DNA of 64,000 nucleotides from a virus. Lineage: Duplodnaviria; Caudoviricetes. Below are positions 22,520-62,392 of this stretch, piece after piece. Position 1 is the stretch's first letter. The number at the start of each line of letters is the position of its first letter. The position numbers were made by a program, and so were the translations under genes. The stretch is taken from positions 32,001-96,000 of IMG/VR virus record IMGVR_UViG_3300029305_002190; one strand, written 5' to 3'. The notes under the pieces were generated by a model. The model ran no database searches. It saw only the letters and a program-made list of their open reading frames with translations, and was not told where the DNA came from.

Positions 22520-22535
22520 ACAATACATAATTAAT
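22520..22535 (+). promoter_or_regulatory. 16-bp repeated element copy (ACAATACATAATTAAT)
   Basis: One mismatch to consensus. Abuts the GGAGG RBS of the Dit gene. Confidence 0.7.
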
Positions 22536-22549
22536 GGAGGTGATTTTAT

Positions 22550-23692
22550 ATGTCAGTTTATTTACCCATTATTTCTTATAAAGGCAAAACAAATTATGAC
22601 TTTCAATTAACGGTAGCGCACTTTGACGCTGACTCAGGAGAATTTGACAGTTATCAAAATATGGAGCCAATTTATACTGAGAATTACGACGGGTCTTTGC
22701 GATATGATTTTGGAGCGAGATATACAGACGTGGCTCGTCCAGTAGTTACTTTTGTAGATCCTGATGGAGATAATATCTCTCCCTATAAAATTAAAGCAGT
22801 TTTACGTTGGCTAACTGGTGCAAAAGATGTATCATTTATGGACATTTGCGACGAAACAGGAGAGAGCATGTGCTCTTATATTGGCCGTTTTACCGATGTA
22901 AAATTATATAAAATTGATGCTCGTGTTGTGGGTATAACGGCTATGTTTACTAGTACTTCTCCTTTTGCGTATTCTCCAATTAAAGAGGCCAGGTTTACTG
23001 TTACTCAAGAAGGAACGGATTTTATAATCGATTGCGATAGCGATGATGAATATAATGTTCTACATCCTACGGTAGAATTTACAAACACTCAAGCAAAAGA
23101 CGAAACAAATCCAGACAAGATTATGTTGTCTCTGTACAACGAAACGATGAATAATGAAACAACTTTTAAAAATTTAAGCACTGGTGAAACTGTCACTATA
23201 AATAGTTCTCTTGCTGTCTACTCAAATAATACTGCACGTATTTTTAATGATGATTACAATTTTGAGTTCCCAGTTTTGAGTTGCGGTAGCAACAATTTTA
23301 CAGCAATTGGCGAAGGAGAATTAGTTATTCGTTTTAGATACCCTATGAAACTAGCAGACGGCCTACTAGACGCTCAACAGCTTAATAATAGCCCTGTCGT
23401 TTATGTTGAAGAAACTACTGTATTTATTAAAGGCGACCTTACTCAAAATCCACCTAACAACACCTCCATTAAAGTAAATGGTACAACACTAACTATTCGT
23501 GGAGATATGAAGTCTGTCAAGGTGCCTGGGTTTAGCGAGGTTGAGAATGGAAATCTATTTATTGATTACGGCAATGTCAATTGTGCATTTGACAGTCTAT
23601 ATGCAATTGTCGAAAATGGCGAACTCTTTATTGGTAAGGATCTTGATAAAGTCGATCCTGACTACAATTTTCCAGGAAGCAAAAATAAATAA
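22550..23692 (+). CDS. Distal tail protein (Dit-like) with C-terminal extension
   Basis: Follows the tape measure gene. RWLT, FTSTSPFAYS and FP.L..G.N motifs of Dit/phage tail family proteins. Confidence 0.75.
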   Translation: MSVYLPIISYKGKTNYDFQLTVAHFDADSGEFDSYQNMEPIYTENYDGSLRYDFGARYTDVARPVVTFVDPDGDNISPYKIKAVLRWLTGAKDVSFMDICDETGESMCSYIGRFTDVKLYKIDARVVGITAMFTSTSPFAYSPIKEARFTVTQEGTDFIIDCDSDDEYNVLHPTVEFTNTQAKDETNPDKIMLSLYNETMNNETTFKNLSTGETVTINSSLAVYSNNTARIFNDDYNFEFPVLSCGSNNFTAIGEGELVIRFRYPMKLADGLLDAQQLNNSPVVYVEETTVFIKGDLTQNPPNNTSIKVNGTTLTIRGDMKSVKVPGFSEVENGNLFIDYGNVNCAFDSLYAIVENGELFIGKDLDKVDPDYNFPGSKNK

Positions 23693-23718
23693 AGAAAAAT
23701 TAATATAGAAAGGAGGTA

Positions 23719-26700
23719 ATGCTTATGAGACTTCCCAAAAATATATTTAATAACACCTATACCAAGCCTAAGATTTTTCTGTGTGAAACTGATAAACAAA
23801 AAATGGGCGTATTAAACACAACAGACACGCATGTATCTCTAAAGTTCAAAGCATACAGCGAATTAACTTTCAATATAGATCGTACTTATATTGACACACT
23901 AACTGGCGATAAACAAACTCACCTGTTATATGATCGAATTGAACATCCTCGTCTGATTTTGCTTGATAATATTGGCTACTTCCAGATTCAAGCACCAGAC
24001 ATGTCTACGGATAGCTTTAAGGAAAGCAAAGCCATTGTTGCCTATTCATCGGAATATGCTTTGTCCCAAAAGTATATTGTTGATCTACATGTAAATACAG
24101 GTAAAGTTGACTCTGTTGAAGTTATTTATTCAGAAGAAACTGGCAGTGCGCTAGAACCAGTCGTTTTCTATAACCAAGCAAACCCAAGATTGAGTCTACT
24201 AGATCTAGCACTTGAAGGTGTGTACGGATGGAAAATCGGCCACATTGATGACTCTCTAAAAACATTATCCCGTTCTTTTGATATTGATAGGCAATCTGTG
24301 TATGATTTCTTGATGAATGACGTATGTAAAAAATTCAATTGTTATATTATTTTTGATACATTAAAAAATGAAATCAACATATACGCAGAGGCGAAAATCG
24401 CCAAATTTATTGGTGACGGCAGAACAAAAAAGTTTACAATATCTCCTTCATTTTATAAGATAAATACCGTATCTATTGATGGCTACAAAACAACTCAATG
24501 GGAATATGATAAAAAAACTGGTGCGCTGACATTTACAAAAGCACCTGAGAATTTATCCAATATTGAAGTTGTCGATGGTGGCCTAACGGAGTGGGAAACA
24601 GACGTGTTTGTCACTTTTGAAAATTTAGCAAAAGAAATGCAAGTGTCATATAATGCTGATGATATTAAGACCCAATTAACCGTTACTTATGGTGATGATC
24701 TAGATATTAGAGAAATCAATATGGGTTCTCCATACATAACCGACTTGTCTTATTACTATACGGTTGATTGGATGGGTCAGGATCTATATGATGCTTACAC
24801 AGCATACCTAAAGAAATCTCAAACATCTCAAACAAATTACACTAAGAACTCACAAGAGATGCTTGAAATTTCTGATCATCAGTATTTTGAAGAGCACAGA
24901 CTTTCTATGGCATATTCTACGATTACTGTTGATAGTAATACTATTGGTACTTATTATGTAAAAGATTCTTCTAACGGCGGATATTTCTTCAAAGAAGTTA
25001 CTTTGCCAGATGACTATAAGGCTTATACCACATACTATCAATTTGATGGCGTAAAGCTAACATCTGAAAAGGTAAATGATTTGTACATGGCCATTCGTGA
25101 TAATTTTAAAACTGGCTCTGTAGAAAAAATCAATGAACTTGCTGATGCATTTGAGTTTATGAATGACAGTGATAGTTATGGCATAGATTATTTGGCTAGG
25201 TATTTAAACAACTCTAATGCGCCAGAAAAAAAGAAATCTTATGTTATGAACTTCTTAAAAGAAATGTGGGAACAAGTTGGTAGAACTCCTCTAAAGTTTT
25301 TATATCAAGAAACATTTAAGATTCTACAGAGTACAAATATTGATTGGGCACAAGAACATATTGATCCTGATGGCAATAAAACATATCATGAAAATTATCC
25401 TTGGTATTATGCAATTTTATTGTTCTTGGAGTCTATAGATAGTGCCATCGCTCTAAGAGATCAGCAGACTGATAAACTGCAACAGGCATATGACAAGCTA
25501 CAAGCAGAAAACATTGAAATTAGCAACGGCCTTTTAATGGAGAATAATTTCACAGAAGCACAGCTGATTAGATTAAGTGCATTCATAAAAGAAGATGAGC
25601 TTCATGTTGAAGACATAATCGAAACTGAATATGATACCCTAGAAGATTCTTTTAAGGTCAAACAATACGCAATGGAAGCTGGCAGAATTGAATTGCACAA
25701 AAGAAGTCAACCACAATTGCAATTTTCTATGACAATGGCAAACATTTATGCCATTCCAGAATTTGAGCCAATCATTCATCAATTCCAACTTGGCAAAGTA
25801 ATTAAAGTCGGACTTCGTTTAGAGACTAAAATTGTAGAGTTTGTTGGAGATGGTGCAAGAAAACAATTTGTAATTGCTCCACCATTCTACAATGTTAAGA
25901 CTGTATCTATTGATGGCGTTGAAACAACTAACTGGCAGTATGATAACATAACTGGTCTTTTAATGCTAAAATCATATAGCGCACCAAAAAGAGGCACTCG
26001 TATCAAAGTTATTGGTGAAAATAACTATATTAAACAGTCTAGATTGCTACAAGTTGATATGGGATTAGATGATCTTTCAGATTTTCAAGCACAGTTTGGT
26101 GAACTAACAGATCTTCGTAATCAATCTGATATTCATGCAGACTTACTATCACAAGCTATTCAAGCTGGTAAATCAGTAGCTAGTTCACAAGACAATTGGA
26201 ACACTGGTGTGGATATGGCTATTAGCACAGATATTAAAATTCAACAGGGTCTGCTGGATTCTGCGACTGTGCTAAAATCAATGGATGGTACTCAGGGAAC
26301 AGAAATCGATAAATATGGTATACATCTTAGAAAAGTTAATCCAGATACAGGTGAAATAGATCCAAAACAAGGCTGGATTACAAATAATATGATGGCGTAC
26401 ACTGATAACAATTGGTTATCATCTAAGAGCGTATTTGGTGAATATCAAATCAAAGGAGAGTCGTCTCCAAGATGGGGTTTGCTTGCAGACGCTTGTATTG
26501 CTTCTTATATTGAAGGTTCAACGTTGATTGGTGGTAGACTTAGTATTGGTGAGCGATCAGATGGATCATATAACTTCTCTGTTGATTACGATGGTAACAT
26601 GATAGCTCAGAGTGCAGATGTTGTTGGTAAGATTACTGCAGATAGTGGCTCTATTCGTGGTGACCTTGAAATATCTGGTGCATTAAAACATACGAATGGC

Positions 26701-27927: not shown

Positions 27928-27940
27928 GGAGGAAAAATAA

Positions 27941-28186
27941 ATGGATATAATTAAAACTTCAAACGGAAAAATATATGAATGTGACTTTTTGTCAGTGATA
28001 GACAATCCTTGCAGGATGTATATTCGAGTTGTAAATTCTACATTGCCAGAAATTGCAACTACGTTTGGTGACAAAGAAGAAACAAAGGAACTTTTGTATG
28101 GAGATATTTTATTAATCGGATATACTAAGTTGATTTCAATAGTAATAGAAGATACGGCAATTAGAGTCGTGCTTACTAGGGAATAA
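27941..28186 (+). CDS. Small hypothetical tail-associated protein
   Basis: RBS AAGGAGG, 81 aa. Confidence 0.6.
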   Translation: MDIIKTSNGKIYECDFLSVIDNPCRMYIRVVNSTLPEIATTFGDKEETKELLYGDILLIGYTKLISIVIEDTAIRVVLTRE

Positions 28187-28192
28187 TTTTAT

Positions 28193-28645: not shown

Positions 28646-28661
28646 GAAAGGATACGATAAA

Positions 28662-28874: not shown

Positions 28875-28927
28875 TACAGATTCCAATAACAGAGTAATAA
28901 AATACTTTTTATTGGAGGAGATTTATT

Positions 28928-29527: not shown

Positions 29528-29546
29528 AATTGGTGTTAAATAAATT

Positions 29547-29718: not shown

Positions 29719-29740
29719 ATTACTCGCCTCCCCCTTTTTT

Positions 29741-29869: not shown

Positions 29870-29872
29870 TTT

Positions 29873-32067: not shown

Positions 32068-32097
32068 ATTATAACATAGGACATAAAATTTTGTAAA
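32068..32097 (-). promoter_or_regulatory. Sigma-A promoter of the recombinase
   Basis: TTTACA-18 bp-TATAAT with an extended TG. Confidence 0.65.
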
Positions 32098-33482: not shown

Positions 33483-33782
33483 TCAAACACCAAAAATGTA
33501 CTTAAATACATCTTCCAAATTTCTGATGTCACGATAGAAATAAGACTTATCGAAATCTGCTTCCAATTTCTTTTGCAGGTCATACGCCTTATCAAATGCC
33601 ATATCAACTTCTGCTACACGAGCCTCGTATTCTGCAGCCTTCTTTGCTTCAGCAGCCTTTCTTTCTTCTTCTGCTCGCTTCTTTAGGCAGGTCTGTTCAC
33701 AGTTCATACGCTGTGCGATGGAGTCATAGACTTCACCGCATACAGCACACTTACACATAGGTTTTGCACATATTTTATCCAT
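33483..33782 (-). CDS. Hypothetical protein with N-terminal Cys motif
   Basis: CAVCG...CEQTC. RBS AGGAGG. Confidence 0.6.
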   Translation of the reverse strand: MDKICAKPMCKCAVCGEVYDSIAQRMNCEQTCLKKRAEEERKAAEAKKAAEYEARVAEVDMAFDKAYDLQKKLEADFDKSYFYRDIRNLEDVFKYIFGV

Positions 33783-33798: not shown

Positions 33799-33814
33799 AT
33801 TAATTTCGTATTGT
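33799..33814 (-). promoter_or_regulatory. 16-bp repeated element copy (ACAATACGAAATTAAT)
   Basis: Lies between the nrdJ stop and the next RBS. Confidence 0.75.
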
Positions 33815-37850: not shown

Positions 37851-37866
37851 ATTAATTTTGTACTGT
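37851..37866 (-). promoter_or_regulatory. 16-bp repeated element copy (ACAGTACAAAATTAAT)
   Basis: Encodes the TVQN* end of the upstream gene and abuts the thyX RBS. Confidence 0.8.
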
Positions 37867-38175: not shown

Positions 38176-38207
38176 TGTAATACCTTCCTTTCATTGTAGT
38201 CGGATAT

Positions 38208-38236
38208 ATTATATCACATTAATTTTGTATTGTCAA
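38208..38236 (-). promoter_or_regulatory. Consensus sigma-A promoter containing the 16-bp element (38218-38233)
   Basis: TTGACA-atacaaaattaatgtga-TATAAT, 17-bp spacer. Confidence 0.9.
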
Positions 38237-38259
38237 GAGGGTGGTAATTCCCTCTTGAC
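38232..38259 (-). terminator. Hairpin after dnaE that overlaps the next -35 box
   Basis: GTCAAGAGGG...CCCTCTTGAC, 10-bp stem. Confidence 0.6.
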
Positions 38260-41626: not shown

Positions 41627-41642
41627 ATTAATTTTGTGCTTT
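41627..41642 (-). promoter_or_regulatory. 16-bp repeated element copy (AAAGCACAAAATTAAT)
   Basis: Encodes the KAQN* end of the HNH gene and precedes the dnaE RBS. Confidence 0.6.
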
Positions 41643-42281: not shown

Positions 42282-42298
42282 ACTCTCACCTCACTTAT

Positions 42299-42314
42299 AT
42301 TAATTTTGTATTGT
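42299..42314 (-). promoter_or_regulatory. 16-bp repeated element copy (ACAATACAAAATTAAT)
   Basis: Exact consensus between the helicase stop and the HNH RBS. Confidence 0.85.
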
Positions 42315-43454
42315 TTATTTAACAATTACTAATTGTTTTGAAGCTCTCGTGATTCCGGTATATAACCACTTCTGATGCTGTTCATAATCTCCTAGCCACT
42401 CTTCAAATAAAATCACACGATTAAACTCAGAACCTTGGCTCTTATGACAAGTGATCGCATATGCATATGCAAATTCAAGCAATTTTGGCGCACCGGCATA
42501 TTGTTTCCAATTATCTTTATTTACAGTGGATTTTCCCTCAACCATTAACTTATAGTCAATTAATAAATCTTCATAAACTCCACCATCATCAGATATAAAA
42601 TCTGCAACAATAACTTTCTCATAAGGGGGCATTTCAATTATGTGAATGTTTGTTAACTGCCCAATTTGCCCATTAATTAATGGATCTCCATTTGATGCGG
42701 TTTCGTTCCAGTTATTTTTAAGACAAATACACTTTTCTCCTTCTAGGGGATCTTTAGAATATTTTTCTCCCCATTTTAATTGACGCATATACTCATTAAT
42801 CTTATGTCTGGTAATATTTTTACCAACAATAATTTGATCTGCACCAAGCAACAACGCATCTGTAACTTTGTCATTCTGCATTACTCTGCATCGCTTGTCA
42901 CCGCCATATTCAAGCCGTTTTCCTTCTCGCACATCCATAGATAATTGAATAATAGGATTATCAAGTGCTTGCCTCGTAACCTCTGTTAAAAATACATTTG
43001 GATTATTGAGAATAGTCTGCTTGCCTTCAATTGGAGGGAGCTGTGCATTATCACCAAGAAATAATACATGAACACTGTGTGACAACAATAGGTCTATCAT
43101 CTCCTGTGGCAGCATTGACGCCTCATCACAAACAATTAGATCATAATTTCTGTCCAGCTTCTTTTTTGGCGTATGAATAAATGTTCCGTCTGGAAGCTCT
43201 TCTGATTTATATAATAGCCTATGGGCGGTCATAGCATTAGTACATCCTTTGTTACGTAGAACTAATGCAGCCTTTCCTGTGTATGCAATGTATACAACTT
43301 TAGAGTCATGTAGCTTGAGTTCATCCACAATAAATCTAACAAGTGTCGTTTTACCAGTTCCAGCGTACCCGACAATAGTTGTGTACGGCTTTCCTTTTTT
43401 ATATCTTTCAACCGCTATCTTTAATCCTTTTTCTTGTCCATTAGTTAAAACCAT
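42315..43454 (-). CDS. SF1B Dda/RecD-like helicase
   Basis: GYAGTGKTT, AYTGKAA, DEASM, GDNAQLPP, AITCHKSQGSEF, YTGITRA. Confidence 0.92.
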   Translation of the reverse strand: MVLTNGQEKGLKIAVERYKKGKPYTTIVGYAGTGKTTLVRFIVDELKLHDSKVVYIAYTGKAALVLRNKGCTNAMTAHRLLYKSEELPDGTFIHTPKKKLDRNYDLIVCDEASMLPQEMIDLLLSHSVHVLFLGDNAQLPPIEGKQTILNNPNVFLTEVTRQALDNPIIQLSMDVREGKRLEYGGDKRCRVMQNDKVTDALLLGADQIIVGKNITRHKINEYMRQLKWGEKYSKDPLEGEKCICLKNNWNETASNGDPLINGQIGQLTNIHIIEMPPYEKVIVADFISDDGGVYEDLLIDYKLMVEGKSTVNKDNWKQYAGAPKLLEFAYAYAITCHKSQGSEFNRVILFEEWLGDYEQHQKWLYTGITRASKQLVIVK

Positions 43455-43458: not shown

Positions 43459-43944
43459 TCACTTCCTTAACTTGCCACCCTGCATTGTTACCTTCGTCTG
43501 CTTAAATTCCTTCATCAAATCCTCAAACGGTCTATTTACCTCACAAGTCTTATTCGTAATAGTCAAATCACTTCTTTGTCGAGGATTATAAGTTCTACGA
43601 TTCTGTGCTTCATAAACCTTTGCAGAGCTTCCCTGAATAGACTGAATCTTACTCTTGAAAGACTGTCCTGGCTGACTCTTAATATAGTCATACATGTCTT
43701 TGAGCAAATCATTCTCATCCTTGGCCTGTCTTCTCTGCATACGCAAATCCTTCACTTGTTTATACAGTTTATATCCGCCATAAAGATCCTGAGGTTTACC
43801 AAGCTCAATTTCGTGATAAACGTCATTCAGCTCATCTTCAGTCTTCTTGATAATTTCTACGTTGCTTTCGTACTTTTTTACCACGTCAGTTGCAATCTGA
43901 ATAAGAGTGCTACAGTAATTGTTGACAATATTGTTACTTGCCAT
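43459..43944 (-). CDS. Hypothetical coiled-coil protein
   Basis: RBS GAAAGGA before ATG 43944. H.IE...GY.LY...RR..K.E pattern. Confidence 0.65.
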   Translation of the reverse strand: MASNNIVNNYCSTLIQIATDVVKKYESNVEIIKKTEDELNDVYHEIELGKPQDLYGGYKLYKQVKDLRMQRRQAKDENDLLKDMYDYIKSQPGQSFKSKIQSIQGSSAKVYEAQNRRTYNPRQRSDLTITNKTCEVNRPFEDLMKEFKQTKVTMQGGKLRK

Positions 43945-43960: not shown

Positions 43961-44005
43961 ATTAATTTTGTACTGTTATTATAGCAGAAATTTCTAGTTT
44001 GTCAA
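43961..44005 (-). promoter_or_regulatory. Sigma-A promoter with the 16-bp element (43961-43976) over the expected +1
   Basis: TTGACA-16 bp-TATAAT, then ACAGTACAAAATTAAT. Confidence 0.8.
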
Positions 44006-51191: not shown

Positions 51192-51207
51192 ATTAATTTT
51201 GTATTGT
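51192..51207 (-). promoter_or_regulatory. 16-bp repeated element copy (exact consensus)
   Basis: Encodes the TIQN* end of recJ and precedes the nadR RBS. Confidence 0.85.
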
Positions 51208-52948: not shown

Positions 52949-52977
52949 ATTATACCACATTAATTTTGTATTGTCAA
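52949..52977 (-). promoter_or_regulatory. Consensus sigma-A promoter containing the 16-bp element (52959-52974)
   Basis: TTGACA-atacaaaattaatgtgg-TATAAT, 17-bp spacer. Confidence 0.9.
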
Positions 52978-54971: not shown

Positions 54972-55030
54972 ATTAATTTTGTGTTGTTATTTAACTGTGT
55001 GTATTATATCATATATTCTTTGTTTGTCAA
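54972..55030 (-). promoter_or_regulatory. Sigma-A promoter (55003-55030) with the 16-bp element (54972-54987) before the RBS
   Basis: TTGACA-16 bp-TATAAT. ACAACACAAAATTAAT is followed by TAAGGAG. Confidence 0.8.
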
Positions 55031-55038: not shown

Positions 55039-55872
55039 TTAAATAAAAATCAATTTATTTACATAATCTTTATCTTGCGTGAAAATAGGTATCTCAGTGT
55101 CAATTACCCATTTGTTACGAACTGTTTCCTGCTCGGTGCCCTCATTAATCTTGAAAGGTTTCTTAATACAACAGCTGCCACGCTTTAGGTGAGTCGGATA
55201 ATCGTTCCAGTTGATGCCCTTTTCGAACATTAACATATCCTGAATATCGCTACAGTTCTTACCGTGAAGCTGATTATGAGAGAAGTTTGCCTGCCCAACC
55301 ATTTGAATGCTGTTTCTAGTAGCATCTAACTGTCTCCAATATAGAAGGTTCATGACTTCTTCCTTAGGGATATTAAATACTCTAGCATCGAACATTGCAC
55401 CTTTTTCACAAGCCTTGGTATAGGCATTAAACAACTTCTTGATATCTTCATCTGCTGCGACAACGTCTAGGTCACTCCAATCAATGTTATTTTCAAACCA
55501 CTGACAACATTCGTTTGCAAAAAACTTATTGAACGCCATAGTTGCCATAGAAGCTAGAATTGAACACAGCTTTTGAATTTCGTAGTCAAAATATGGAGAT
55601 GTGTTGAATTCTTTATAGTCAATTAAAATCAAAGTAATTTCATCTGACTGCTGATATGACAGCACAACACCTTGTACATTTTCACATAAATATTTTGCTG
55701 TTTTCTGCATCGACTTAATATAAACTTCGTCAAACGGTCTTTTGAATCCTTTTGTAAAGCTATGGTGAGCCTTTCCGTCAATACGACATGCCACGGGACA
55801 ACGCCTCATCAGCCTTGCTTTTGGCACAGACTCATAGTCTTTCATTCTTTTTGCTAGTTCACTTGTATCCAT
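55039..55872 (-). CDS. Thg1-like protein (tRNA-His guanylyltransferase / 3'-5' polymerase)
   Basis: RMKDYE, RIDGKA, YQQSDEIT, FDAR, WRQLDA.RNS. Confidence 0.95.
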   Translation of the reverse strand: MDTSELAKRMKDYESVPKARLMRRCPVACRIDGKAHHSFTKGFKRPFDEVYIKSMQKTAKYLCENVQGVVLSYQQSDEITLILIDYKEFNTSPYFDYEIQKLCSILASMATMAFNKFFANECCQWFENNIDWSDLDVVAADEDIKKLFNAYTKACEKGAMFDARVFNIPKEEVMNLLYWRQLDATRNSIQMVGQANFSHNQLHGKNCSDIQDMLMFEKGINWNDYPTHLKRGSCCIKKPFKINEGTEQETVRNKWVIDTEIPIFTQDKDYVNKLIFI

Positions 55873-55892
55873 AATATTATTCTCCAATCAAA

Positions 55893-56681
55893 TTAATTTG
55901 CCAATGGACTTTTAGATTTTTTATAACTTAAATATAATTGATATTTTCTATCCAGTCTTGTTAAGTCTGATGAACATCCATATAATATGTCTAGAATTTT
56001 ATATGCAACACTACAAGAATAGTTAATTACATATTGATGGATTGGTGGCATTCCAGTATTATTTCGAACTAATATATTATTGTTATATACAAAATTCATA
56101 ATCTGTTGAAGCATAGTTTCAGATCCAGAAGTGAAATTAATGCGTAAATAATTGTTTGTATGAGTTACACTACCATCGCCATCAAAGTAACCACGAATAA
56201 AATGTTTAACCATATCTTCTGGAATTTTGTCTGGAATTGTAATATCAAATGTTTTATTTGGACGTATATTAAAATTTTTATCTAGAGCATCTTGAAACCA
56301 TTTGCCAGCAAATGTAATATAACAATCATTCTTATTGAGTTTGACGTTCCCTTCATAATTGGTTAATTTGGCAAGTTTTAACAAATGCTCATAATCTACA
56401 CTTGCTAAATGTATTGTTACAGCTGCTCTGTCGGATCTCACATATCCATCTGCTGCAATAAACCCTGCCCAATAACAACTATTTTCATTGTATTCGTCAA
56501 AGAAATGAATGTCATAATGTACAGGTGTACGTTTACGTAAATCTATATTATTTCTTTTTAAAATTCTTTGAACAGTTGCTCTATGAATTTCACATTTTTG
56601 TGATATTTCCATAGTCCCGTATCCATTATTATATAAATCAATTATATCTTTTTCTGTTTTTTTATCAATTTTATTTGGCAT
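55893..56681 (-). CDS. Free-standing LAGLIDADG homing endonuclease with N-terminal HTH
   Basis: YWAGFIAADG and FIRGYFDGDG. Markedly AT-rich. Confidence 0.92.
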   Translation of the reverse strand: MPNKIDKKTEKDIIDLYNNGYGTMEISQKCEIHRATVQRILKRNNIDLRKRTPVHYDIHFFDEYNENSCYWAGFIAADGYVRSDRAAVTIHLASVDYEHLLKLAKLTNYEGNVKLNKNDCYITFAGKWFQDALDKNFNIRPNKTFDITIPDKIPEDMVKHFIRGYFDGDGSVTHTNNYLRINFTSGSETMLQQIMNFVYNNNILVRNNTGMPPIHQYVINYSCSVAYKILDILYGCSSDLTRLDRKYQLYLSYKKSKSPLAN

Positions 56682-56700
56682 AGAACCACTCCAATTTTAC

Positions 56701-56716
56701 ATTAATTTTGTATCGT
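56701..56716 (-). promoter_or_regulatory. 16-bp repeated element copy (ACGATACAAAATTAAT)
   Basis: Upstream of the LAGLIDADG RBS. Confidence 0.75.
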
Positions 56717-56741
56717 CTATGCATCTTTTATTTTTAATTAC

Positions 56742-57638
56742 TTAATGTGCATTCCTGTCCGCCTCGTGAAGCAAATCTACCTGTTTCTTTAGATAAGCAG
56801 GAAGTCTATTGTAATATTTCGTATTTAGATAAGGATCCATATGTGTGGAAATCAGCCAAGCAATTTTTACCCATGTGTCACTAGTACCACCAATTTCACT
56901 AGTCATTCCATAATACATATATGAACCCAAACATTGATGCTGGTAGTAATGAGCATTCTCACAAGGATTACCTTTGCTATCAACAAATGCTTTTACGTAT
57001 GGTTTTCCTATGTCATGATACATAGCTGCCACCCACACTTCGTCATACTGACCTCTTTCATAAAAATATGATCCTGCTTCAGCACAATGATCTAAAATAT
57101 TCAAAGTGTGATGAGGGTTATCATGAGGGATATCCATGTTCATAACTATCTTTTTACTGTATTCTTTTGCATTAAAATTGTCATCAGAATAACGAATATA
57201 GATACCATCAAACCCTTCATCATAATAAGGTGCCTGGAATCGCTTAAGCATTCTATCAATGACTTCCTTGCCAACAGTGCGTTCTCTGGCAGCGTCTCTC
57301 TCGATGCAAGTCTCAATAGGTGCCCAAATAATATGGCACTCAATCTTAGCAAACTTAGGGCAAAGAGTGATAATGTAAGATCTGTCTTTTCTTGTAATGT
57401 TCGTAGCGTCATATACCACAGACTGTCCGTTATTCAGTGCTTCAATTGCTCTAGACTGCATCAGAGAAAACACTTTGTTGTTGTCGCCCTGAGTAGCTTC
57501 ATTACCCCAAAGTTCTTCACGAATCTTGTCGGAGGAAAGATGTACTGTATTGGGATTCTCTTTAATATATTTTTCTGCGTATGTAGTTTTGCCTGAGCCG
57601 GGAATTCCGACAAGTAAAATTAAACTAGGTCTGTTCAT
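56742..57638 (-). CDS. Polynucleotide kinase-HD phosphoesterase fusion (RNA end-healing enzyme)
   Basis: GIPGSGKTT, YDATN, HDNPHH, YHDIGK, HEAD. Confidence 0.85.
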   Translation of the reverse strand: MNRPSLILLVGIPGSGKTTYAEKYIKENPNTVHLSSDKIREELWGNEATQGDNNKVFSLMQSRAIEALNNGQSVVYDATNITRKDRSYIITLCPKFAKIECHIIWAPIETCIERDAARERTVGKEVIDRMLKRFQAPYYDEGFDGIYIRYSDDNFNAKEYSKKIVMNMDIPHDNPHHTLNILDHCAEAGSYFYERGQYDEVWVAAMYHDIGKPYVKAFVDSKGNPCENAHYYQHQCLGSYMYYGMTSEIGGTSDTWVKIAWLISTHMDPYLNTKYYNRLPAYLKKQVDLLHEADRNAH

Positions 57639-57639
57639 T

Positions 57640-58449
57640 TTAATCACCAATTTCTTTCTTAATAGCAATCTTCATAATGTTGTACTGCACATCATCAAGT
57701 AGAACATCAACATCTTTATCAACTTCAGTTGAACAAGTCTCTAGATACTTATCGCACATTTTATCAATACAGCCAATAGCCCAATTAGCAATCATGCGAG
57801 CATCATCCAGGTTGTGAAAACCAAGTTTTACTGACTGTAAATAGTCTGGCATTTTTGAAATCAAGCAATCTTCATATGATTCGCCGTCAATGTATCTGCT
57901 GATATATTCATTAACTCTCAGTAGATGATGCAGTTGTTTCGGATCGTAAGAAAACTTCTCAATCCATGCCATTCGTGCAGGATAGTGATGTTCCATTGCA
58001 TGATACTTTTCTTTTGCAATGCCCTTCATAGACTTAATAGCCTGTACAGGTGCATAGCGTGCAATTTTCTCACGAGCCTTTACAAGTCTATCCCATTCAT
58101 CTTTATACATAGGATTGATAATTGCATATTTAGTAAACAGGATTTCTAGGAAGTTCAAGTTTTGCTTTCTGAAAGTCTGGATATAGAGTCTAATATCCTT
58201 AAAATCGATGTGCTCTTCATTCTCTCTGATATGAGTTGTACTTACTGCCTTTTTATTCATTGCAATATCTTCAAAGGTTGGCGTGACAATCAGCTTGGTG
58301 TCTACATCAGAACCTTCATAGTCAAGGCCGTAGTTACCGCTGCCCTGATAAAAGATACCTACAATTCTATCTTCGGGGAAGTGTTCGAGAGCCTCGTTGT
58401 AGTGCTCTCGAACATTCCGCATGATCCATTCATCACTGTGAAAATTCAT
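57640..58449 (-). CDS. Pol-beta-fold nucleotidyltransferase (RlaP-like)
   Basis: QGSGNYGLD...SDVD, N.NFLE.LF, YDPKQLHH.LR. Confidence 0.8.
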   Translation of the reverse strand: MNFHSDEWIMRNVREHYNEALEHFPEDRIVGIFYQGSGNYGLDYEGSDVDTKLIVTPTFEDIAMNKKAVSTTHIRENEEHIDFKDIRLYIQTFRKQNLNFLEILFTKYAIINPMYKDEWDRLVKAREKIARYAPVQAIKSMKGIAKEKYHAMEHHYPARMAWIEKFSYDPKQLHHLLRVNEYISRYIDGESYEDCLISKMPDYLQSVKLGFHNLDDARMIANWAIGCIDKMCDKYLETCSTEVDKDVDVLLDDVQYNIMKIAIKKEIGD

Positions 58450-59818
58450 CAGTCATCACTTCCTCATTAATGCCATCGGCTTCTTCCATATCAGGAGCCT
58501 CAGCTTCAACCTTAACAATTCCTTCAAGAGCCTTGAAAGACCAGTTCTTATGCTTGTATGCACAGAATTTAGGACGGTTCAGAATACGAACTACAACGCC
58601 TTCACGGACATGAGTCTTGCCAATAGGGTCGGGACCATCATAGTACTTTTCTGCACGAGTAATTGCATAATGCCCTGCGCTTTCCCACGTGTTAGCTTCA
58701 AGCCAATCTGCGTAAGGAATAGTGCCCTTCCACATCACAGGGACAGTCTTAACACCCATCTGCTCACAACGATAGCGCATGAAATCAGGAGTGTACTCGA
58801 CAACATCACCATCTTCATTGGTCATTGTCATACGGTAAACGTAGATATCAGACTGAGGAATAACTCCATCTGCGGAATTTACACCATCAGGGGCACAACC
58901 ATAAGAGAAAGTAGTAGTCTTTCCATACTGCTTAACAAACTCCTTGTCGTTCAGCTTCTTATTGTCTGCCGTAGACATAATAGGTGCGCCAGTATGAGTG
59001 AAACCAACCACCTCGTAGTAGACCTCTTCGCCCTTCCACAGCTTGCCCTCAAAGAACTTAGAATGTGCTTCACGGAACTCGTTAGATCCATAATATCCAC
59101 CTTCAAAATTCTCTAGAACAGTACGACGAGTGCCAGAGACGTAACCCCAATCATAAACAGGAGTACCTTCACGACGGAATAGTTTGTCCCAGATTGTGCG
59201 CTTGTAGTCCTTAAACACAGGTAGGTGTGCAGTTCGCTGAGAAGTGCCATGCATCTTTAGAGTGATTTCAATCTCGTCACCGGGCTTAAAAGCTGCCAGA
59301 TTGTAGGCGAGCTGCTCAGTGTCCATATGCTCATAAAACAGAGGTGCAATGCTTCTCTTAGCTCTACGCTTAATGCGCTTTCCTGCTCCACCTGCGGCAG
59401 TACGTTCACGCTTAAAAGGTACATACTTGCAGCAAATCTCATGTCCATTAAAGTTATCAATTCGGTCACCCTCACGCAGAGTGGTAATGTCACCAAAAGG
59501 CTCAAGAGACTTCAGAGGCAGGAACAGGCCATCAGACTTTTCTCCACGAAGCTTAATAGCAGTGACGTTGCGCTTGTCGGGATCCATGTAACCGCCAATG
59601 TTATTGCCGTTTTCATCCTTCTTGCGAAGCAGGTTATTTGCTTCTGCAAATGCAGTGCTAATCTGTCCATCAGAAGGGAAGTAAATGCCAAGCTGGTTGT
59701 CCTCGTATTCCAGAGAGACAATTACAGTGTTACCAAAGCACTCACCCATCTGCAGTCGATCCGCCTTAGGGTGTGTACGCAGATTCTTAATTCTTGTAAT
59801 AAATGCTGTATAAGCCAT
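58433..59818 (-). CDS. ATP-dependent RNA ligase with N-terminal OB/tRNA-binding-like domain
   Basis: HPKADRL...KLRGEKSDG N-terminus; motif I LKMHGTS, YEVVG, REGVVVR, YKHK. Confidence 0.85.
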   Translation of the reverse strand: MAYTAFITRIKNLRTHPKADRLQMGECFGNTVIVSLEYEDNQLGIYFPSDGQISTAFAEANNLLRKKDENGNNIGGYMDPDKRNVTAIKLRGEKSDGLFLPLKSLEPFGDITTLREGDRIDNFNGHEICCKYVPFKRERTAAGGAGKRIKRRAKRSIAPLFYEHMDTEQLAYNLAAFKPGDEIEITLKMHGTSQRTAHLPVFKDYKRTIWDKLFRREGTPVYDWGYVSGTRRTVLENFEGGYYGSNEFREAHSKFFEGKLWKGEEVYYEVVGFTHTGAPIMSTADNKKLNDKEFVKQYGKTTTFSYGCAPDGVNSADGVIPQSDIYVYRMTMTNEDGDVVEYTPDFMRYRCEQMGVKTVPVMWKGTIPYADWLEANTWESAGHYAITRAEKYYDGPDPIGKTHVREGVVVRILNRPKFCAYKHKNWSFKALEGIVKVEAEAPDMEEADGINEEVMTDEFSQ

Positions 59819-60016
59819 TTCTTATTGTCCTTTCTAATTAATCTTCATCATTCTTATGTTTTTCCATGGAATCAAAAGCCTGCTCATATCTATCAAGCTC
59901 TTTAATAGCAACTTCAATAAAGCATCCATTTGTTCCATTTAGACTGCATCTAGAGCAGCTACATTCCTTACATTTCTTCAGTTCATATTTTAGATCAAGC
60001 ATTGTTTTGTACCTCC

Positions 60017-60032
60017 ATTCATTTTGTACTGT
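60017..60032 (-). promoter_or_regulatory. 16-bp repeated element copy (ACAGTACAAAATGAAT)
   Basis: Directly followed by GGAGGT and the ATG (60003) of a small Cys-rich ORF upstream of the ligase. Confidence 0.7.
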
Positions 60033-60068
60033 TAGTATATCATATATTTTCCAGAAATCAATATGGCA

Positions 60069-60096
60069 AAATGGCCAAAGATCACTTCGGCCATTT
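60069..60096 (-). terminator. Terminator-like hairpin
   Basis: AAATGGCC...GGCCATTT. Confidence 0.55.
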
Positions 60097-60107
60097 GTTT
60101 ATTTTAG

Positions 60108-60515
60108 TTAAAGTTTATCTTCGCAACTACCACAAAGCGGCACAATGATATGTCCATACGTCATATGTGCTGTTTCTTTGCCACAGATTATACAGGTATG
60201 TCTGCTAATTTCAGTATACCTCTTAATAATATCTTGGACAGTCGGAATGATCTCTTCAATATCTTTATTGTCTATATCTGTATAATAATCTTTATCGGGG
60301 AAATTCCAGTACACAGTTAACTGCCCGTACTTTTCTTTAATCTGATAAAACATTATCTCGTCCGCATATGCGCCGCACGCTTTAAACAATTCGTCTTTTA
60401 ATTGAGGGAAAAATGACTTAATCCAGCCATCTGGAATACCATCAATTGAAGATTCAAAGTTATATTCAAAATCTGTCCGAATATCATGCTGATAATCTTT
60501 CCATTCATTACTCAT
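60108..60515 (-). CDS. Hypothetical phage protein
   Basis: GW...QIKEKYG.L.Y...C..CG...C..C motif. Confidence 0.7.
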   Translation of the reverse strand: MSNEWKDYQHDIRTDFEYNFESSIDGIPDGWIKSFFPQLKDELFKACGAYADEIMFYQIKEKYGQLTVYWNFPDKDYYTDIDNKDIEEIIPTVQDIIKRYTEISRHTCIICGKETAHMTYGHIIVPLCGSCEDKL

Positions 60516-60542
60516 TTTTCATACCTCAAATAAAATCAACAT

Positions 60543-60998
60543 TTATTCATCAAGCATTTTTGCAGTATTAATAAAGATCTGCTTTAGCTGGTCATCATAT
60601 CCAAATCTTGTTGCGTTAATTTCAATTGATTTGAGCAGATTGCCATCATGTTGCCTCATACTAGCAGCCTTCCAATCACATAACATTTCCACAACATCAA
60701 CAAGAGTCATATCGTTAATACCTTTGCTAAAATGCTCAGGATGATGACGATTACACGCATAGTGATGTTGAAGTGCTGTATTAAGTTCCTTTAGTGACTC
60801 GTTATATTCTGGTGTTCCGTAAGTCAGTTTTGCCAACTTTGGAGTGCATTTAGTAAATGCTTCTACTTCTGGACTTTCTAGCTTAGAAGCATCATGTTTA
60901 ACTCCACGAGTTGTAAGTGCATCTGTAAACATTCTAATATACATTCTTACATTTTCAATGTGCTTAATCGTTTCTACCTTGCACTCTGTTACAGTCAT
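60543..60998 (-). CDS. HD-like protein (DUF5662-like)
   Basis: HI..V, HDASK, HHY..NRHHPEH, EMLCDW.AA. Confidence 0.75.
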   Translation of the reverse strand: MTVTECKVETIKHIENVRMYIRMFTDALTTRGVKHDASKLESPEVEAFTKCTPKLAKLTYGTPEYNESLKELNTALQHHYACNRHHPEHFSKGINDMTLVDVVEMLCDWKAASMRQHDGNLLKSIEINATRFGYDDQLKQIFINTAKMLDE

Positions 60999-61002
60999 TC
61001 TC

Positions 61003-61425
61003 TTAGCCCTCCAATTTCTTCCACATATCACTCAAAGACCAACCGTTAGTCTTTGCCAGATACACAGAATAAGCGCCAATCTTATAGCTATCAGTTACAC
61101 CAATACAATCCTTAAAGTAATCACTTAGACAATTAAATGTATCTTTCTTGCTTCCCTCTTGCCAAGCAATTACTCCAACACCATTAATGGTTAGGAAATC
61201 ATATGCGGTTCCTCTGTGCTCGCCATTTGAAAAGCAGCAGAAAATTTCTTCATTCATACAGAATGATTCAATATTGCCTAGGTCACACTTTTCTACTTTC
61301 CAAACTTCATAATAAGGATGGTCATTGTATGGATCATGCGGACATCTATATGTACGCTTTGCTGCAATATGTAGATGACTTACGACATCACGAAATTCTC
61401 CACCAGTTAGCACTTCAACCTTCAT
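61003..61425 (-). CDS. Hypothetical protein
   Basis: ORF coupled to the upstream gene. Confidence 0.6.
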   Translation of the reverse strand: MKVEVLTGGEFRDVVSHLHIAAKRTYRCPHDPYNDHPYYEVWKVEKCDLGNIESFCMNEEIFCCFSNGEHRGTAYDFLTINGVGVIAWQEGSKKDTFNCLSDYFKDCIGVTDSYKIGAYSVYLAKTNGWSLSDMWKKLEG

Positions 61426-62198
61426 TCTTTATTCTCCTTATTCAAATGTTCTTTCATTGCCTTAATCATATTCAAAATATCAGGCTTTTTAATGTTTTCT
61501 TCCATCCACGCAATATAGTCAGGCGCAGATCTATACACATCAATTAGACGTTTACCTGAATGCTTACCGAATGGTAGTGTATAATTCTCATCAAATTCAA
61601 CATTTTCTTGCACCATGAAATATCCATCAAAGTCCATAGTCAAGCATTTTCTAGATGCAAGATAGTCTGCAACATGAACCATTCTGGCAAACTTATTATT
61701 AGGCTTAGGAAGCTCAACACCAGTTTTTTTGTCTTCGTTCCATTGTCCCATATGTTTGCTAATGGTATCGGCTACCATTTCAATTTCTTCATGAGTTAAA
61801 TACTTTCCATCAAAACTTCTAATTACGTCTGCCATCAGAATAGGATGATTAAATCTGGTGTACTTGGACTTTTCATAATCTTCCTGAGATCCTGATTTGC
61901 GCCCATCGTGCACAAGTCCAGAAAGTCTAATAAGATCCCTTTCTCTGCTTGTTAACTTGCTATTATATTGTTCTAACTCCAAAAAGAAATTTAAAAATCT
62001 AACTACTGCAACTTGATGTCTCATCAAACCCATTTCTCCAAGCGAATATGCTGGGTGATATTTGCCAGTGGAGCTTGCGCCTACATGCCAAATATAATCA
62101 GGCAAATCGCCAAGCAAAACAACTGCAAATTCTTTAATATCTTCATTCTCAAATGTGTCTAAAATTGGCTGAATGAATTTCAGTCTTTCTTCTGTCAT
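61422..62198 (-). CDS. HD-domain phosphohydrolase with C-terminal PFGKH.G module
   Basis: ASSTGKYHP, GL.RH, LVHDGRK, HP, HMG, VHVADY, LPFGKHSG...DY..W. Confidence 0.8.
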   Translation of the reverse strand: MTEERLKFIQPILDTFENEDIKEFAVVLLGDLPDYIWHVGASSTGKYHPAYSLGEMGLMRHQVAVVRFLNFFLELEQYNSKLTSRERDLIRLSGLVHDGRKSGSQEDYEKSKYTRFNHPILMADVIRSFDGKYLTHEEIEMVADTISKHMGQWNEDKKTGVELPKPNNKFARMVHVADYLASRKCLTMDFDGYFMVQENVEFDENYTLPFGKHSGKRLIDVYRSAPDYIAWMEENIKKPDILNMIKAMKEHLNKENKE

Positions 62199-62376
62199 TG
62201 TTAATCCTCCACATACTCAACAATGTAATCAGTCTTATTACAACAATCACACTGATACTCTTCGTCACTCATAACAATCTTCTTAATTTCCTTCTTGGTC
62301 GGCTTCATAATACGAATATAACACTTCTTACAAAGAGATTCGTATATATCCTGTTGACTCATTAATAACTCTCCTT

Positions 62377-62392
62377 ATTAATTTTGTATTGT
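62377..62392 (-). promoter_or_regulatory. 16-bp repeated element copy (exact consensus)
   Basis: Between the deaminase stop and the AAGGAG RBS of a small ORF (ATG 62362). Confidence 0.85.

Follow-up and report, generated by a model that had tools for sequence, protein, structure and literature searches.

A directional 16-bp element, ACARTACAAAATTAAT, recurs at promoters and gene junctions in a family of uncultured gut phages, and we consider it somewhat probable that the element is an SPBRE-type operator for a phage-encoded MrpR-like master repressor, spread in stoperator fashion to the junctions. SPBRE, the SPbeta repeated element, is bound by MrpR/YopR, the master repressor of Bacillus phage SPbeta, according to the excerpted text of the study describing it (PMC10516654). 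If the element is bound by an MrpR-type repressor, it would therefore be the SPBRE counterpart in distant, uncultured SPbeta-like gut phages.

The window is the whole 64,000-nucleotide stretch analyzed here, which belongs to a 109-kb contig. The contig is incomplete (69%) and comes from a distant SPbeta-like phage. It encodes homologues of SprA (8e-21) and YorL (1e-53), its ends fall inside genes, and its relatives carry YonO, YonJ, YonF and YonN homologues.

Results

Copy number, orientation and boundaries

Seven exact matches to ACARTACAAAATTAAT were found in the window (37851, 38218, 42299, 43961, 51192, 52959 and 62377), all on the minus strand, versus a mean of 0.00 in shuffled sequence, where none of 100 shuffles gave any. 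Allowing two mismatches returned 13 matches, whereas the shuffles averaged 0.49, never exceeded 3 and reached 13 in 0/100 cases. These 13 are exactly the twelve minus-strand sites and the plus-strand site at 22520 listed by the first-pass annotation. Of the 19 copies in the whole contig, the early arm (47 kb) has 16 and the structural arm (62 kb) only 3. The copies in the window and their surroundings are as follows.

1148..1163, plus strand: degenerate copy ATAATACAAAATGAAA with 3 mismatches, directly 5' of the ribosome-binding site (RBS) of an HNH endonuclease gene (1175-2155)
22520..22535, plus strand: 1-mismatch copy of the junction class, preceded by a hairpin 3' of the tape-measure gene and followed by the RBS for the tail gene at 22550
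33799..33814, minus strand: 1-mismatch copy with the ribonucleotide reductase stop codon on its 5' side and, on its 3' side, the RBS for a 99-aa gene (33486-33782)
37851..37866, minus strand: exact copy encoding the TVQN* end of a 107-aa gene and adjoining the thyX RBS
38208..38236, minus strand: perfect TTGACA-17-TATAAT promoter in which an exact copy, 38218-38233, takes up the -35/spacer (promoter-embedded class)
41627..41642, minus strand: 2-mismatch copy encoding KAQN* of an HNH endonuclease and adjoining the DNA polymerase III alpha RBS
42299..42314, minus strand: exact copy that separates the helicase stop codon from the RBS of the HNH endonuclease gene
43961..44005, minus strand: perfect TTGACA-16-TATAAT promoter, 1 nt, exact copy (43961-43976), then the RBS of a conserved 161-aa gene
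51192..51207, minus strand: exact copy encoding TIQN* of a RecJ-like gene and adjoining the RBS of a NadR-like gene
52949..52977, minus strand: perfect TTGACA-17-TATAAT promoter of the RecJ-like gene, with an exact copy (52959-52974) in the -35/spacer
54972..55030, minus strand: perfect TTGACA-16-TATAAT promoter, 15 nt, 1-mismatch copy (54972-54987), then an RBS
56701..56716, minus strand: 1-mismatch copy 5' of the RBS of a LAGLIDADG endonuclease gene
60017..60032, minus strand: 1-mismatch copy 1 nt after a TATACT -10-like hexamer and 5' of the RBS of a 54-aa Cys-rich ORF (59838-60002)
62377..62392, minus strand: exact copy 1 nt after TATATT and 5' of the RBS of a 53-aa Cys-rich ORF (62201-62362)

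Genes in the window run on the plus strand up to about 29.5 kb and on the minus strand from about 30 kb. The element matches the local gene direction at 13/13 window sites and 19/19 contig sites; its co-orientation with transcription, first described as nearly invariable, thus holds for every copy. A position table of 127 sites from four genomes revealed a sharp-edged 16-bp block without dyad symmetry, as the first-pass annotation had claimed, with conservation even across 16/16 positions and G as the next base at 57% of sites. Such an asymmetric, evenly conserved block fits a recombinase-type clamp on one half-site.

Three further sites had been called degenerate copies, and they fared differently. 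The copy at 1148 (plus strand) is plausible. The reversed match at 32094 (plus strand, 3 mismatches), in the serine-integrase promoter, is probably due to chance because the same promoter of the close relative G005 has no counterpart. The site at 55892 (minus strand) keeps only the 3' half, CAAATTAAT, with more than 3 mismatches, and is therefore not confirmed as a copy. A full-text literature search with the element and its complement gave no phage paper among the matches, as judged by their titles.

Placement at promoters and gene junctions

The element is placed in one of three fixed registers: within the -35/spacer of consensus promoters, downstream of the -10 by 1-17 nt, or between a stop codon and the RBS that follows. 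All nine perfect TTGACA-N16-18-TATAAT promoters in the contig bear it, four in the spacer and five at 1-17 nt downstream, and a sigma-A-type promoter holds, or stands at most 17 nt upstream of, 10/19 copies. The copies at 38218 and 52959 were confirmed to fill the -35/spacer of perfect promoters with 17-nt spacing. The remaining copies lie just 5' of an RBS, as initially described; they end 13-22 nt before the start codon (13/19 in the contig) and adjoin the Shine-Dalgarno sequence. Each of the protein ends TVQN*, KAQN* and TIQN* proved to be encoded by the element.

An automatic tally of 198 sites in six genomes placed the peak distance from element end to start codon at 11-20 nt. Promoter spacers hold 32 of these sites, about 122 lack a recognizable adjoining sigma-A promoter, and 9 are followed by a terminator-like hairpin. 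The same registers return amid unrelated flanks in other phages; two phages have a single -10 with one copy on either side. A tRNA gene begins 2 nt past the end of one copy. At the primase promoter the register differs between relatives, being in the spacer in the contig and G003 and after the -10 in G005. In the contig, GIY-YIG, HNH and LAGLIDADG homing-endonuclease genes are preceded by copies and a second HNH gene by the degenerate one; one HNH gene has copies at both junctions.

Distribution among phages and hosts

Relatives of 82-170 kb carry 23-44 copies each (0-3 for a reversed-pattern control), and the exact 16-mer is present at no fewer than 152 loci in IMG/VR. It is letter-for-letter the same among phages whose DNA polymerases are only 23-31% identical, and identical 16-mers flank very different genes in these highly diverged phages. 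The canonical element is at background in SPbeta (19 matches with up to 3 mismatches versus 8 for the control) and in phage Amboise. A Megablast search with 10 kb of window sequence matched no isolated phage.

In a 2.4-Mb assembly binned as Faecalimonas, a single phage contig of 162.6 kb accounts for 31/31 matches with at most 1 mismatch, and in an Anaerocolumna isolate assembly the element is at control level. On these two assemblies a host regulon was rejected. The hosts are probably gut Clostridia rather than Bacillus, as judged from binning only. In the only RNA run in which the stretch occurs, a metatranscriptome, 8% of the sampled words were present; the run was kept as assembled contigs and so carries no transcript start or end information.

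Reverse copies occur at the tyrosine-integrase leader in G001 and G006; the MrpR-homologue promoter has them only in G001 and G004. An antisense RNA partner was rejected, since the complement was not found at any family-wide conserved locus.

MrpR homologues accompany the element

All six motif-bearing relatives examined (G001-G006) encode an MrpR homologue. Five of them (G001, G002, G003, G005 and G006) matched SPbeta MrpR by blastp with E values of 3e-11 to 7e-4, at about 25-27% identity, and G004 carries an orthologue (1.5e-88). The G005 protein matched Pfam MrpR_N_CB (2e-12; 48 bits, cut-off 27) and the solved MrpR/YopR chains in the PDB (1.5e-12 over residues 1-266 of 304). MrpR/YopR is represented by Pfam PF22822/PF22823 and PDB 8a0a and 8bj6. 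No MrpR homologue was matched in the motif-free phages G011 (complete) and Amboise (0/2). The MrpR homologue gene adjoins that of a YopP-like recombinase in this phage family, and in G005 and G001 its operon opens with a promoter-embedded variant copy of the element.

The 109-kb contig yielded no MrpR homologue, either by tblastn with SPbeta MrpR or in a search with the G005 homologue. The closest relative has the gene about 36 kb past the last shared segment, versus 24 kb of contig left, and the homologue is presumably missing because the contig is 69% complete. No arbitrium (AimR) homologue and no T7-type polymerase were found in the contig, nor was an HTH-type repressor detected by Pfam among its 117 proteins or when small proteins were re-scanned at E <=1.

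The element and the MrpR homologue were compared further in 41 loci around MrpR homologues, a canonical copy being defined by at most 1 mismatch. At least one canonical copy is present in 30/41 loci; the reversed-pattern control gave 0 in 41/41. Eight loci encode homologues 67-69% identical to the G005 protein; seven of these hold 1-3 canonical copies and one holds none, and all eight repeat the ...AAAATGAAT variant more often than any other word. The G005 MrpR-homologue locus itself also bears this variant. Another eight loci, with homologues about 30% identical, contain zero canonical copies, and ACAG(A/T)ACAAAGTGATT is repeated there in the same registers. Besides the canonical 16-mer, the element has the ...TGAAT and ACAGAACAAAGTGATT variants, and its sequence changes where the MrpR homologue diverges. 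Both co-occurrence and co-variation follow phage lineages, so they do not represent independent events.

A 161-aa protein rejected as the specific factor

The 161-aa protein encoded at 43462-43944 (minus strand) is the most conserved non-structural protein among the relatives (54-65% identity), with 983 homologues and no Pfam domain. It was rejected as the specific factor because a protein with 57% identity occurs in G011, which is complete, motif-free and otherwise unrelated, and 4/41 loci around its homologues hold no element copy. The third reason is its predicted model (pLDDT 80), a set of three long helices that resembled no known fold significantly (best E 0.17); Atlas and PDB sequence searches with the protein gave nothing. 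G011 shares almost nothing with the family, and a comparison of gene content with it is therefore uninformative.

Comparison with known systems

For this comparison, the SPBRE sequence was derived from the ten ChAP-seq target regions given in the excerpted text of PMC10516654, which reports ten MrpR peaks, in promoter regions. SPBRE so derived resembles the element in being an AT-rich repeat of about 15-16 bp in the -35/spacer/-10 of SPbeta early promoters, with an ATACAAA core starting 1-2 nt downstream of the -35; the yopV and yopM copies adjoin the RBS, as many element copies do. The phage family is SPbeta-like in encoding the MrpR homologue beside a YopP-like recombinase together with YonO, SprA, YorL, YonJ and YonF homologues, and the repressor-homologue operon likewise opens with a copy. 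However, the two sequences differ, agreeing by eye at about 12/17 aligned positions, and the genomes here carry 19-44 copies compared with the ten peaks reported for SPbeta in those excerpts (PMC10516654). Also unlike SPbeta, over half of the copies stand at junctions without a recognizable promoter, the host is probably a gut Clostridium (from binning only) and AimR was not found in the contig.

Similar features are seen in the operators and stoperators of Cluster A mycobacteriophages, as exemplified by L5 gp71 and the TipsytheTRex repressor. Like the element, these are described in the available excerpts of PMC9283540 as short asymmetric sites that number more than 20 per genome and stand in promoters as well as in short gaps between genes, with an orientation tied to transcription and a promoter copy overlapping the -35. 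The element shows the same pattern, with 19 copies in a 69%-complete contig and 23-44 in relatives, co-orientation at 19/19 sites, and both promoter and junction classes. In contrast, the GGTGGMTGTCAAG-type stoperator site is unrelated to it in sequence, the stoperator repressor is a monomer with HTH and stoperator domains rather than the recombinase fold of the present candidate, and stoperator specificity diversifies between subclusters (same excerpts, PMC9283540), whereas the 16-mer is identical across very diverged phages. Blocking of elongation is known of stoperators and is putative, by analogy, for the element.

The start-associated sequences (SAS) of Cluster K mycobacteriophages are, in the excerpted description (PMC3203893), likewise asymmetric repeats that concentrate in the non-structural arm, share one orientation and lie a short way 5' of start codons; some contain the preceding stop codon, the host lacks them and some genomes have a lone reverse copy. 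They include the Shine-Dalgarno core and end 3-7 bp before the start codon (PMC3203893, excerpts). Unlike SAS, the element lacks a Shine-Dalgarno sequence, since a separate one follows, ends mostly 11-20 nt before the start codon and also occurs inside promoters.

Discussion

The operator part of the network proposed in the first-pass annotation has gained support from the SPbeta-like kinship, the MrpR homologues in 6/6 relatives, the co-variation and the SPBRE-like position in promoters. That annotation had left the binding factor unnamed; a candidate, the MrpR homologue, can now be put forward, although its gene is absent from the window's own contig. We infer that the element is the binding site of the MrpR homologue, that this protein is a repressor and that elongation halts at junction copies. 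The repressor would be of the MrpR type, that is, a DNA-binding protein with a tyrosine-recombinase fold that has lost recombination, and one molecule may occupy each asymmetric site. The adjacent YopP-like recombinase could be an alternative binder. It is also unusual for an immunity operator to be identical across phages as diverged as these in their DNA polymerases.

Alternatively, the element may work in RNA, as a shared mRNA leader 5' of the RBS that serves as the target of a translational regulator or the cleavage site of an endoribonuclease; transcripts would then share a short 5' end through processing or through initiation inside the element. The sense orientation of the copies and the distance to the start codon (the peak over 198 sites and 13/19 copies at 13-22 nt) agree with this, and in copies 1 nt after a -10 the start predicted from the -10 falls inside the element, giving the same 5' end as cleavage. 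The phage also has a large set of RNA-repair and tRNA genes, and SAS provide a precedent for start-linked repeats in the text excerpted from PMC3203893. However, the 32/198 spacer copies lie upstream of the transcripts of those promoters, and the exchange of spacer and after-the-(-10) registers at orthologous primase genes would create or destroy an RNA element while keeping a DNA operator. The copy 2 nt before a tRNA gene and the hairpins after 9/198 copies also speak against it, and substitutions among element copies (64 transitions versus 55 transversions) display no clear wobble-type bias. Placement between stop codon and RBS is equally expected of any intergenic DNA site under genome compaction. 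Taken together, we regard an RNA role as unlikely, and the operator reading does not require a translational one.

A promoter for the YonO-like single-chain RNA polymerase of the phage, with the start at the purine just 3' of the element, is slightly harder still to credit. Phage polymerase promoters of the T7 type are sharply bounded directional blocks followed by G, and the element shares the sharp edges, the direction, the frequent G and the position directly 5' of genes and of a tRNA. Motif-bearing relatives (G001, G002, G005 and G006) encode YonO homologues (blastp E 1e-32 to 2e-19, FDFDGD motif, Pfam RdRP 3.6e-7); no YonO gene was found in the contig fragment. On the polymerase-promoter reading, copies that are embedded in a promoter or follow a -10 would be dual host/phage promoters. 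In the excerpts of PMC5467207, the YonO promoter sequence is described as not yet known, which leaves room for this reading, but the late operon of SPbeta has a single mapped start, upstream of yonK, whereas the copies here cluster on host-type promoters of the early arm, with few in the structural arm. Because the copies are tied to consensus host promoters, most phage-polymerase promoters would be redundant. Moreover, with a start right 3' of the element, only 0-9 nt would separate the 5' end from the RBS, and a different conserved box (a hairpin, then TTTTGTTATATTAAAA) precedes the capsid module in relatives. It is highly improbable that the element has no regulatory role and is a short conserved boundary linker, both spread by and promoting recombination between related phages and the insertion of homing-endonuclease cassettes. 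Identical 16-mers beside very different genes in otherwise diverged phages, and the endonuclease genes preceded or flanked by copies, are what such a linker predicts; yet it leaves unexplained the exact registers to the -35 and -10 hexamers, the strict co-orientation and the lineage variants that track MrpR, and second-order selection would not keep 16/16 positions.

Under the preferred reading, as a DNA operator of an MrpR-type repressor, the effect of the element would depend on its register. A promoter-embedded site, at about -32 to -17, would exclude the host sigma-A polymerase, and a site 1 nt after the -10, at about -5 to +11, would block opening or escape. A site further downstream or between genes would be met by elongating polymerase and may be an orientation-dependent roadblock of the L5 stoperator kind. 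Inactivation of the repressor would let the consensus promoters fire. Since the SPbeta peaks lie in promoter regions and about 122 of the 198 copies lack a promoter, the junction copies require this additional, putative roadblock function. A bolder version, which we hold only tentatively and think doubtful as a whole, is that a recombinase-fold repressor of the MrpR type acts as a genome-wide, orientation-dependent silencer that covers every strong early promoter and halts polymerase at 10-25 junctions per genome, convergent with mycobacteriophage stoperators but of unrelated fold; the 16-mer might then also serve as a common mRNA leader once the repressor is gone.

For metagenomics, if the operator reading is right, the element is a simple marker by which the early arm of these phages can be recognized and oriented, and it explains spurious depth spikes and chimeric joins at its promoters. 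MrpR and SPBRE have so far been known from one phage, in Bacillus subtilis. If the operator reading is true, the same control logic would operate in a large and abundant group of uncultured 80-170-kb Firmicutes phages of the animal gut, their repressor and operator variants would form a natural series for studying how a recombinase fold reads DNA, and the junction copies would offer a clean test for stoperator-like roadblocks outside mycobacteriophages.

Results

The element is enriched, directional and sharply bounded

Seven exact copies of the 16-bp element ACARTACAAAATTAAT occur in the window, compared with 0.00 in 100 dinucleotide-preserving shuffles. Allowing up to two mismatches raises the count to 13 (shuffle mean 0.49, maximum 3); these sites are exactly the 13 positions listed in the first-pass annotation. 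The whole contig of 109,183 bp, of which the window covers bases 32001-96000, holds 11 exact copies and 19 with up to two mismatches. The 3 plus-strand copies all lie within its plus-strand structural arm and the 16 minus-strand copies within its minus-strand early/replication arm; thus, 19 of 19 match local gene direction, confirming the claimed co-orientation with transcription.

Across 127 sites from four genomes, a position table delimits the conserved block sharply at 16 bp and shows no dyad symmetry. T and A are preferred on its 5' side, often as a TAA stop codon sharing its last A with motif base 1, and G follows directly in 57% of sites. Of three degenerate copies also proposed, only that at 1148 (plus strand; 3 mismatches, upstream of a ribosome-binding site) is credible. 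The match at 32094 has 3 mismatches and is absent from the same promoter in a close relative, and that at 55892 retains only the 3' half of the motif.

The element occupies promoters and gene junctions in distinct registers

All nine perfect consensus promoters of the contig bear the motif. Four copies are promoter-embedded, as cTTGACAATACAAAATTAATnTGnTATAAT, such that the motif fills the spacer and its ACA ends the -35 hexamer; two of these lie in the window, within perfect TTGACA-17-TATAAT promoters, as originally described. Another six lie downstream of a -10 hexamer (3 at exactly 1 nt, 3 at 15-17 nt), and a tRNA-Gln gene starts 2 nt past one of them. In the remaining nine cases the motif separates a stop codon from the Shine-Dalgarno sequence that follows, and at three of these its own TAA serves as the stop codon. 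The reported abutment of other copies on ribosome-binding sites was also recovered, as were the three proteins whose ends (TVQN, KAQN and TIQN, each before the stop codon) are encoded by the motif. The register is not fixed for a given gene: at the primase gene, the contig and relative G003 carry the motif within the spacer, and relative G005 carries it after the -10 hexamer. Two phages carry a copy on both sides of a single -10 hexamer, 27 bp start to start.

At promoters feeding tRNA or non-coding stretches, in the contig and relatives, a second conserved box, CAGTTCAARGGA, lies between the -10 hexamer and the motif; combined with the opening letters of the motif, this box can make a small GTTC/GAAC hairpin or palindrome.

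Promoters with the second box
L003 (contig stretch right of the window) 8670-9900 (contig 103669-104900), minus strand

The element is widespread in a phage family

An exact-motif scan of IMG/VR returned at least 152 loci, with several matches apiece in many contigs of 80-170 kb, and the registers repeat within otherwise unrelated flanks. Whole-record counts in motif-bearing relatives at up to two mismatches were 41 (G001), 36 (G002), 23 (G003), 30 (G004) and 44 (G005), versus 0-3 per record for the motif read backwards. Six genomes together contain 198 sites (104 exact), classed automatically as promoter spacer (32), downstream of -10 (44) or without recognised promoter (122). The next called gene is co-oriented at 168 of the 198, and most of the 30 exceptions proved on inspection to be errors of the crude gene caller. 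Start codons most often lie 11-20 nt past the end of the motif, and a terminator-like hairpin lies 3' of 9 sites, versus 12 of 2000 random positions.

A host signal was ruled out, as all 31 matches in a 2.4-Mb Faecalimonas-binned assembly lie on one 162.6-kb phage contig. Neither SPbeta nor Clostridium phage Amboise, which among isolates has the closest DNA polymerase III alpha (47.5% identity), rose above background in whole-genome counts. A variant ending in ...AAAATTAT(T/A) characterises another partial contig.

The summed depth of contigs in assemblies of gut and faecal metagenomes jumps 10-40-fold at the motif-bearing promoter. These spikes are flanked on both sides by loose ends, with many false 'joints' between copies; evidently, the shared motif block pulls in contigs of many different phages.

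Depth spikes, gut and faecal metagenome assemblies
window 38204-38240
window 42295-42320

In relatives, the capsid module is preceded by a stop codon, the motif, a variable terminator hairpin and the conserved box TTTTGTTATATTAAAAyAAATTT.

Capsid-module arrangement
G005 158540
G001 134693
G002 22077

Motif-bearing relatives encode an MrpR homologue

Proteins common to complete motif-bearing relatives and absent from the fragment were listed and scanned. A 304-aa protein of G005 matches Pfam MrpR_N_CB (2e-12; 48 bits versus a cut-off of 27) and, weakly and under the cut-off, MrpR_C_cat (8.5e-5). Its residues 1-266 match the solved MrpR/YopR chains 8bj6, 8bjv and 8a0a at ~1e-12, and blastp against SPbeta YopR gave 1e-10. 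The homologue adjoins a YopP-like tyrosine recombinase (PF00589, 3e-35). The scan also turned up a 656-aa protein that contains an FDFDGD motif and matches YonO (4e-32) and Pfam RdRP. Relatives further encode YonJ, YonF and YonN homologues, and the contig itself encodes SprA and YorL homologues; with MrpR, these markers identify the family as a distant SPbeta-like group.

The MrpR homologue is present in all six motif-bearing relatives examined (G001-G006), and no match was found in the complete motif-free phage G011 or in Amboise. It was not found on the window's contig, a 69%-complete fragment. The contig's closest relative (76-86% nucleotide identity across the shared early arm) carries it ~36 kb past the last shared segment, where the contig has only 24 kb left on that side, a layout compatible with the gene being located beyond the end of the fragment.

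In G005 and G001, the operon holding the homologue opens with a promoter-embedded variant copy, which suggests autoregulation of the candidate repressor. A variant copy in reverse orientation, ACAATACAATATTAAT, occupies the spacer of the promoter of the homologue itself (TTGACT-17-TATAAT); G001 and G004 have this copy, and G002, G005 and G006 do not. A reverse exact copy also lies between a sigma-A-type promoter and the ribosome-binding site of a tyrosine integrase gene that is convergent with the late arm; this copy is co-oriented with late transcription entering the integrase gene.

Reverse-oriented copies
G001 20468-20483, variant, MrpR-homologue promoter
G004 81838-81853, variant, MrpR-homologue promoter
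G001 70697-70712, exact, tyrosine integrase gene (PF00589, 1.9e-26)
G006 78902-78917, exact, the same

The element co-varies with the MrpR homologue

We compared 41 IMG/VR loci surrounding MrpR homologues. One or more canonical copies (up to one mismatch) were present in 30 of 41, and the backwards control was absent from all 41. Eight loci encode a homologue with 67-69% identity to the G005 protein; seven of them hold 1-3 canonical copies and one none, and the commonest repeated word in each is a ...AAAATGAAT variant, also present at G005's locus. Eight loci with a ~30% identical homologue hold no canonical copy and instead repeat ACAG(A/T)ACAAAGTGATT, placed as the canonical motif is, downstream of -10-like hexamers and upstream of ribosome-binding sites. 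Neither sequence occurs at the two loci with a 23-24% identical homologue. Such co-variation is the pattern that a protein and its site would give; being lineage-bound, it supports the pairing and does not prove it.

Gene content of the phage

Pfam and PHROGs scans portray a long-tailed phage whose tape-measure protein (~4,350-4,396 aa) implies an extremely long tail. The contig encodes a large serine recombinase, DNA polymerase III alpha, a RecJ-like nuclease, primase, ligase, ribonucleotide reductase, ThyX and many homing endonucleases, and 20 tRNA genes with several interspersed HNH genes lie at its right end. These scans of the contig's proteins revealed no HTH repressor, sigma factor or T7-type polymerase. 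The contig breaks off inside a capsid-module gene (complete in G002) on the left and inside the tRNA cluster on the right; with a CheckV completeness of 69%, it represents part of a phage genome of some 160 kb.

Two ORFs match phrog_14959, one ending at 1092 (1489 aa, beginning upstream of the window) and one of 1046 aa at 2282-5419 (plus strand). Both match one single 2322-aa ORF in G001 and an HNH gene lies between them, so a large structural gene was apparently split by homing-endonuclease insertion. A NifS-like aminotransferase is among the few early proteins common to all relatives examined. A 161-aa protein has 983 homologues, with neither a Pfam domain nor a fold match found, and its conservation (53-65% identity) extends to a motif-free phage of 164.6 kb that is otherwise unrelated.

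Gene features and contig ends
window 1175-2155, plus, HNH endonuclease gene between the phrog_14959 ORFs
window 9302-22492, plus, tape-measure gene (Pfam PhageMin_Tail)
window 43462-43944, minus, 161-aa all-helical protein
window 55042-59818 and L003, minus, RNA-repair/tRNA gene set: RNA ligase, kinase/HD phosphatase, Thg1-like guanylyltransferase, nucleotidyltransferase, TROVE/vWA 'RNA-binding' protein (DUF2828/DUF7788)
L003 1316-2407 (contig 96312-97406), minus, NifS-like class-V aminotransferase (cysteine desulfurase type)
G000 (the contig) 1-364 and 108900-109183, contig ends, outside the window

Another phage type with the 161-aa protein (IMG/VR relatives L270 and, over its first 5 kb, L243) has different punctuation at nearly every gene junction: TAA stop, AA, ~7 nt, TTTAAGAGGT, start codon (19 junctions in 20 kb). 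A third type carries TTTACTTGTA over -35 regions.

Discussion

The reading that we favour, with modest confidence, is that the motif is an MrpR-type operator. The SPbeta study (PMC10516654) describes MrpR as a master repressor with a tyrosine-recombinase fold lacking recombinase function, ten ChAP-seq peaks in promoter regions with the 15-bp SPBRE, and binding and repression at SPBRE confirmed by EMSA and lacZ fusions. From the ten named upstream regions we derived SPBRE as (T)AGACAAATACAAAWAATATGTATAT(AAT), spanning -35, spacer and -10; at yopV and yopM it abuts AGGAG. The motif shares this place and an ATACAAA beginning 1-2 nt past the -35, whereas its remaining sequence differs, its sites are many more and spread across gene junctions, and most lie away from recognisable promoters. 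It would work like SPBRE and is probably its evolutionary counterpart. Among the other analogues first named, Cluster A mycobacteriophage stoperators fit in distribution and orientation, and reversal of such a site is reported to abolish repression (PMC9283540). Start-associated sequences do not fit, since the motif lacks a Shine-Dalgarno sequence and lies further from the start codon.

Judging by the anatomy of the sites and established facts on MrpR and L5 gp71, one repressor molecule would bind each asymmetric site. Spacer copies (~-32 to -17) would prevent initiation at strong early promoters, and copies 1 nt past the -10 (~-5 to +11) would likewise stop it, so that every strong early promoter would be covered. 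Leader and junction copies would stand in the path of elongating transcription and, given their strict orientation, may act like stoperators.

Against the operator reading stand the absence of the candidate gene from the window's contig and the fact that most copies, unlike the SPbeta peaks, have no recognisable promoter; moreover, an immunity operator would not usually be an identical 16-mer among phages with polymerases 23-31% identical. A leader acting at the RNA level would account for the tight linkage to ribosome-binding sites, but we consider it unlikely, as it leaves unexplained the 32 spacer copies, the tRNA-linked copy and the register switching of orthologous genes such as primase. 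A promoter of the YonO-like polymerase is attractive in form and, in our view, slightly more doubtful: in SPbeta, YonO transcribes the late cluster from a single start (PMC5467207), whereas the copies here are concentrated in the early arm and sit on host-type promoters. Additionally, a different conserved box precedes the capsid module and is a possible late promoter, either of the extended -10 type or of the YonO type.

A full-text literature search for the motif returned nothing relevant. Overall, we read these data as a candidate system of the MrpR/SPBRE type carried by an uncultured family of gut phages, in which the putative operators would be far more numerous than in SPbeta and extend across gene junctions.
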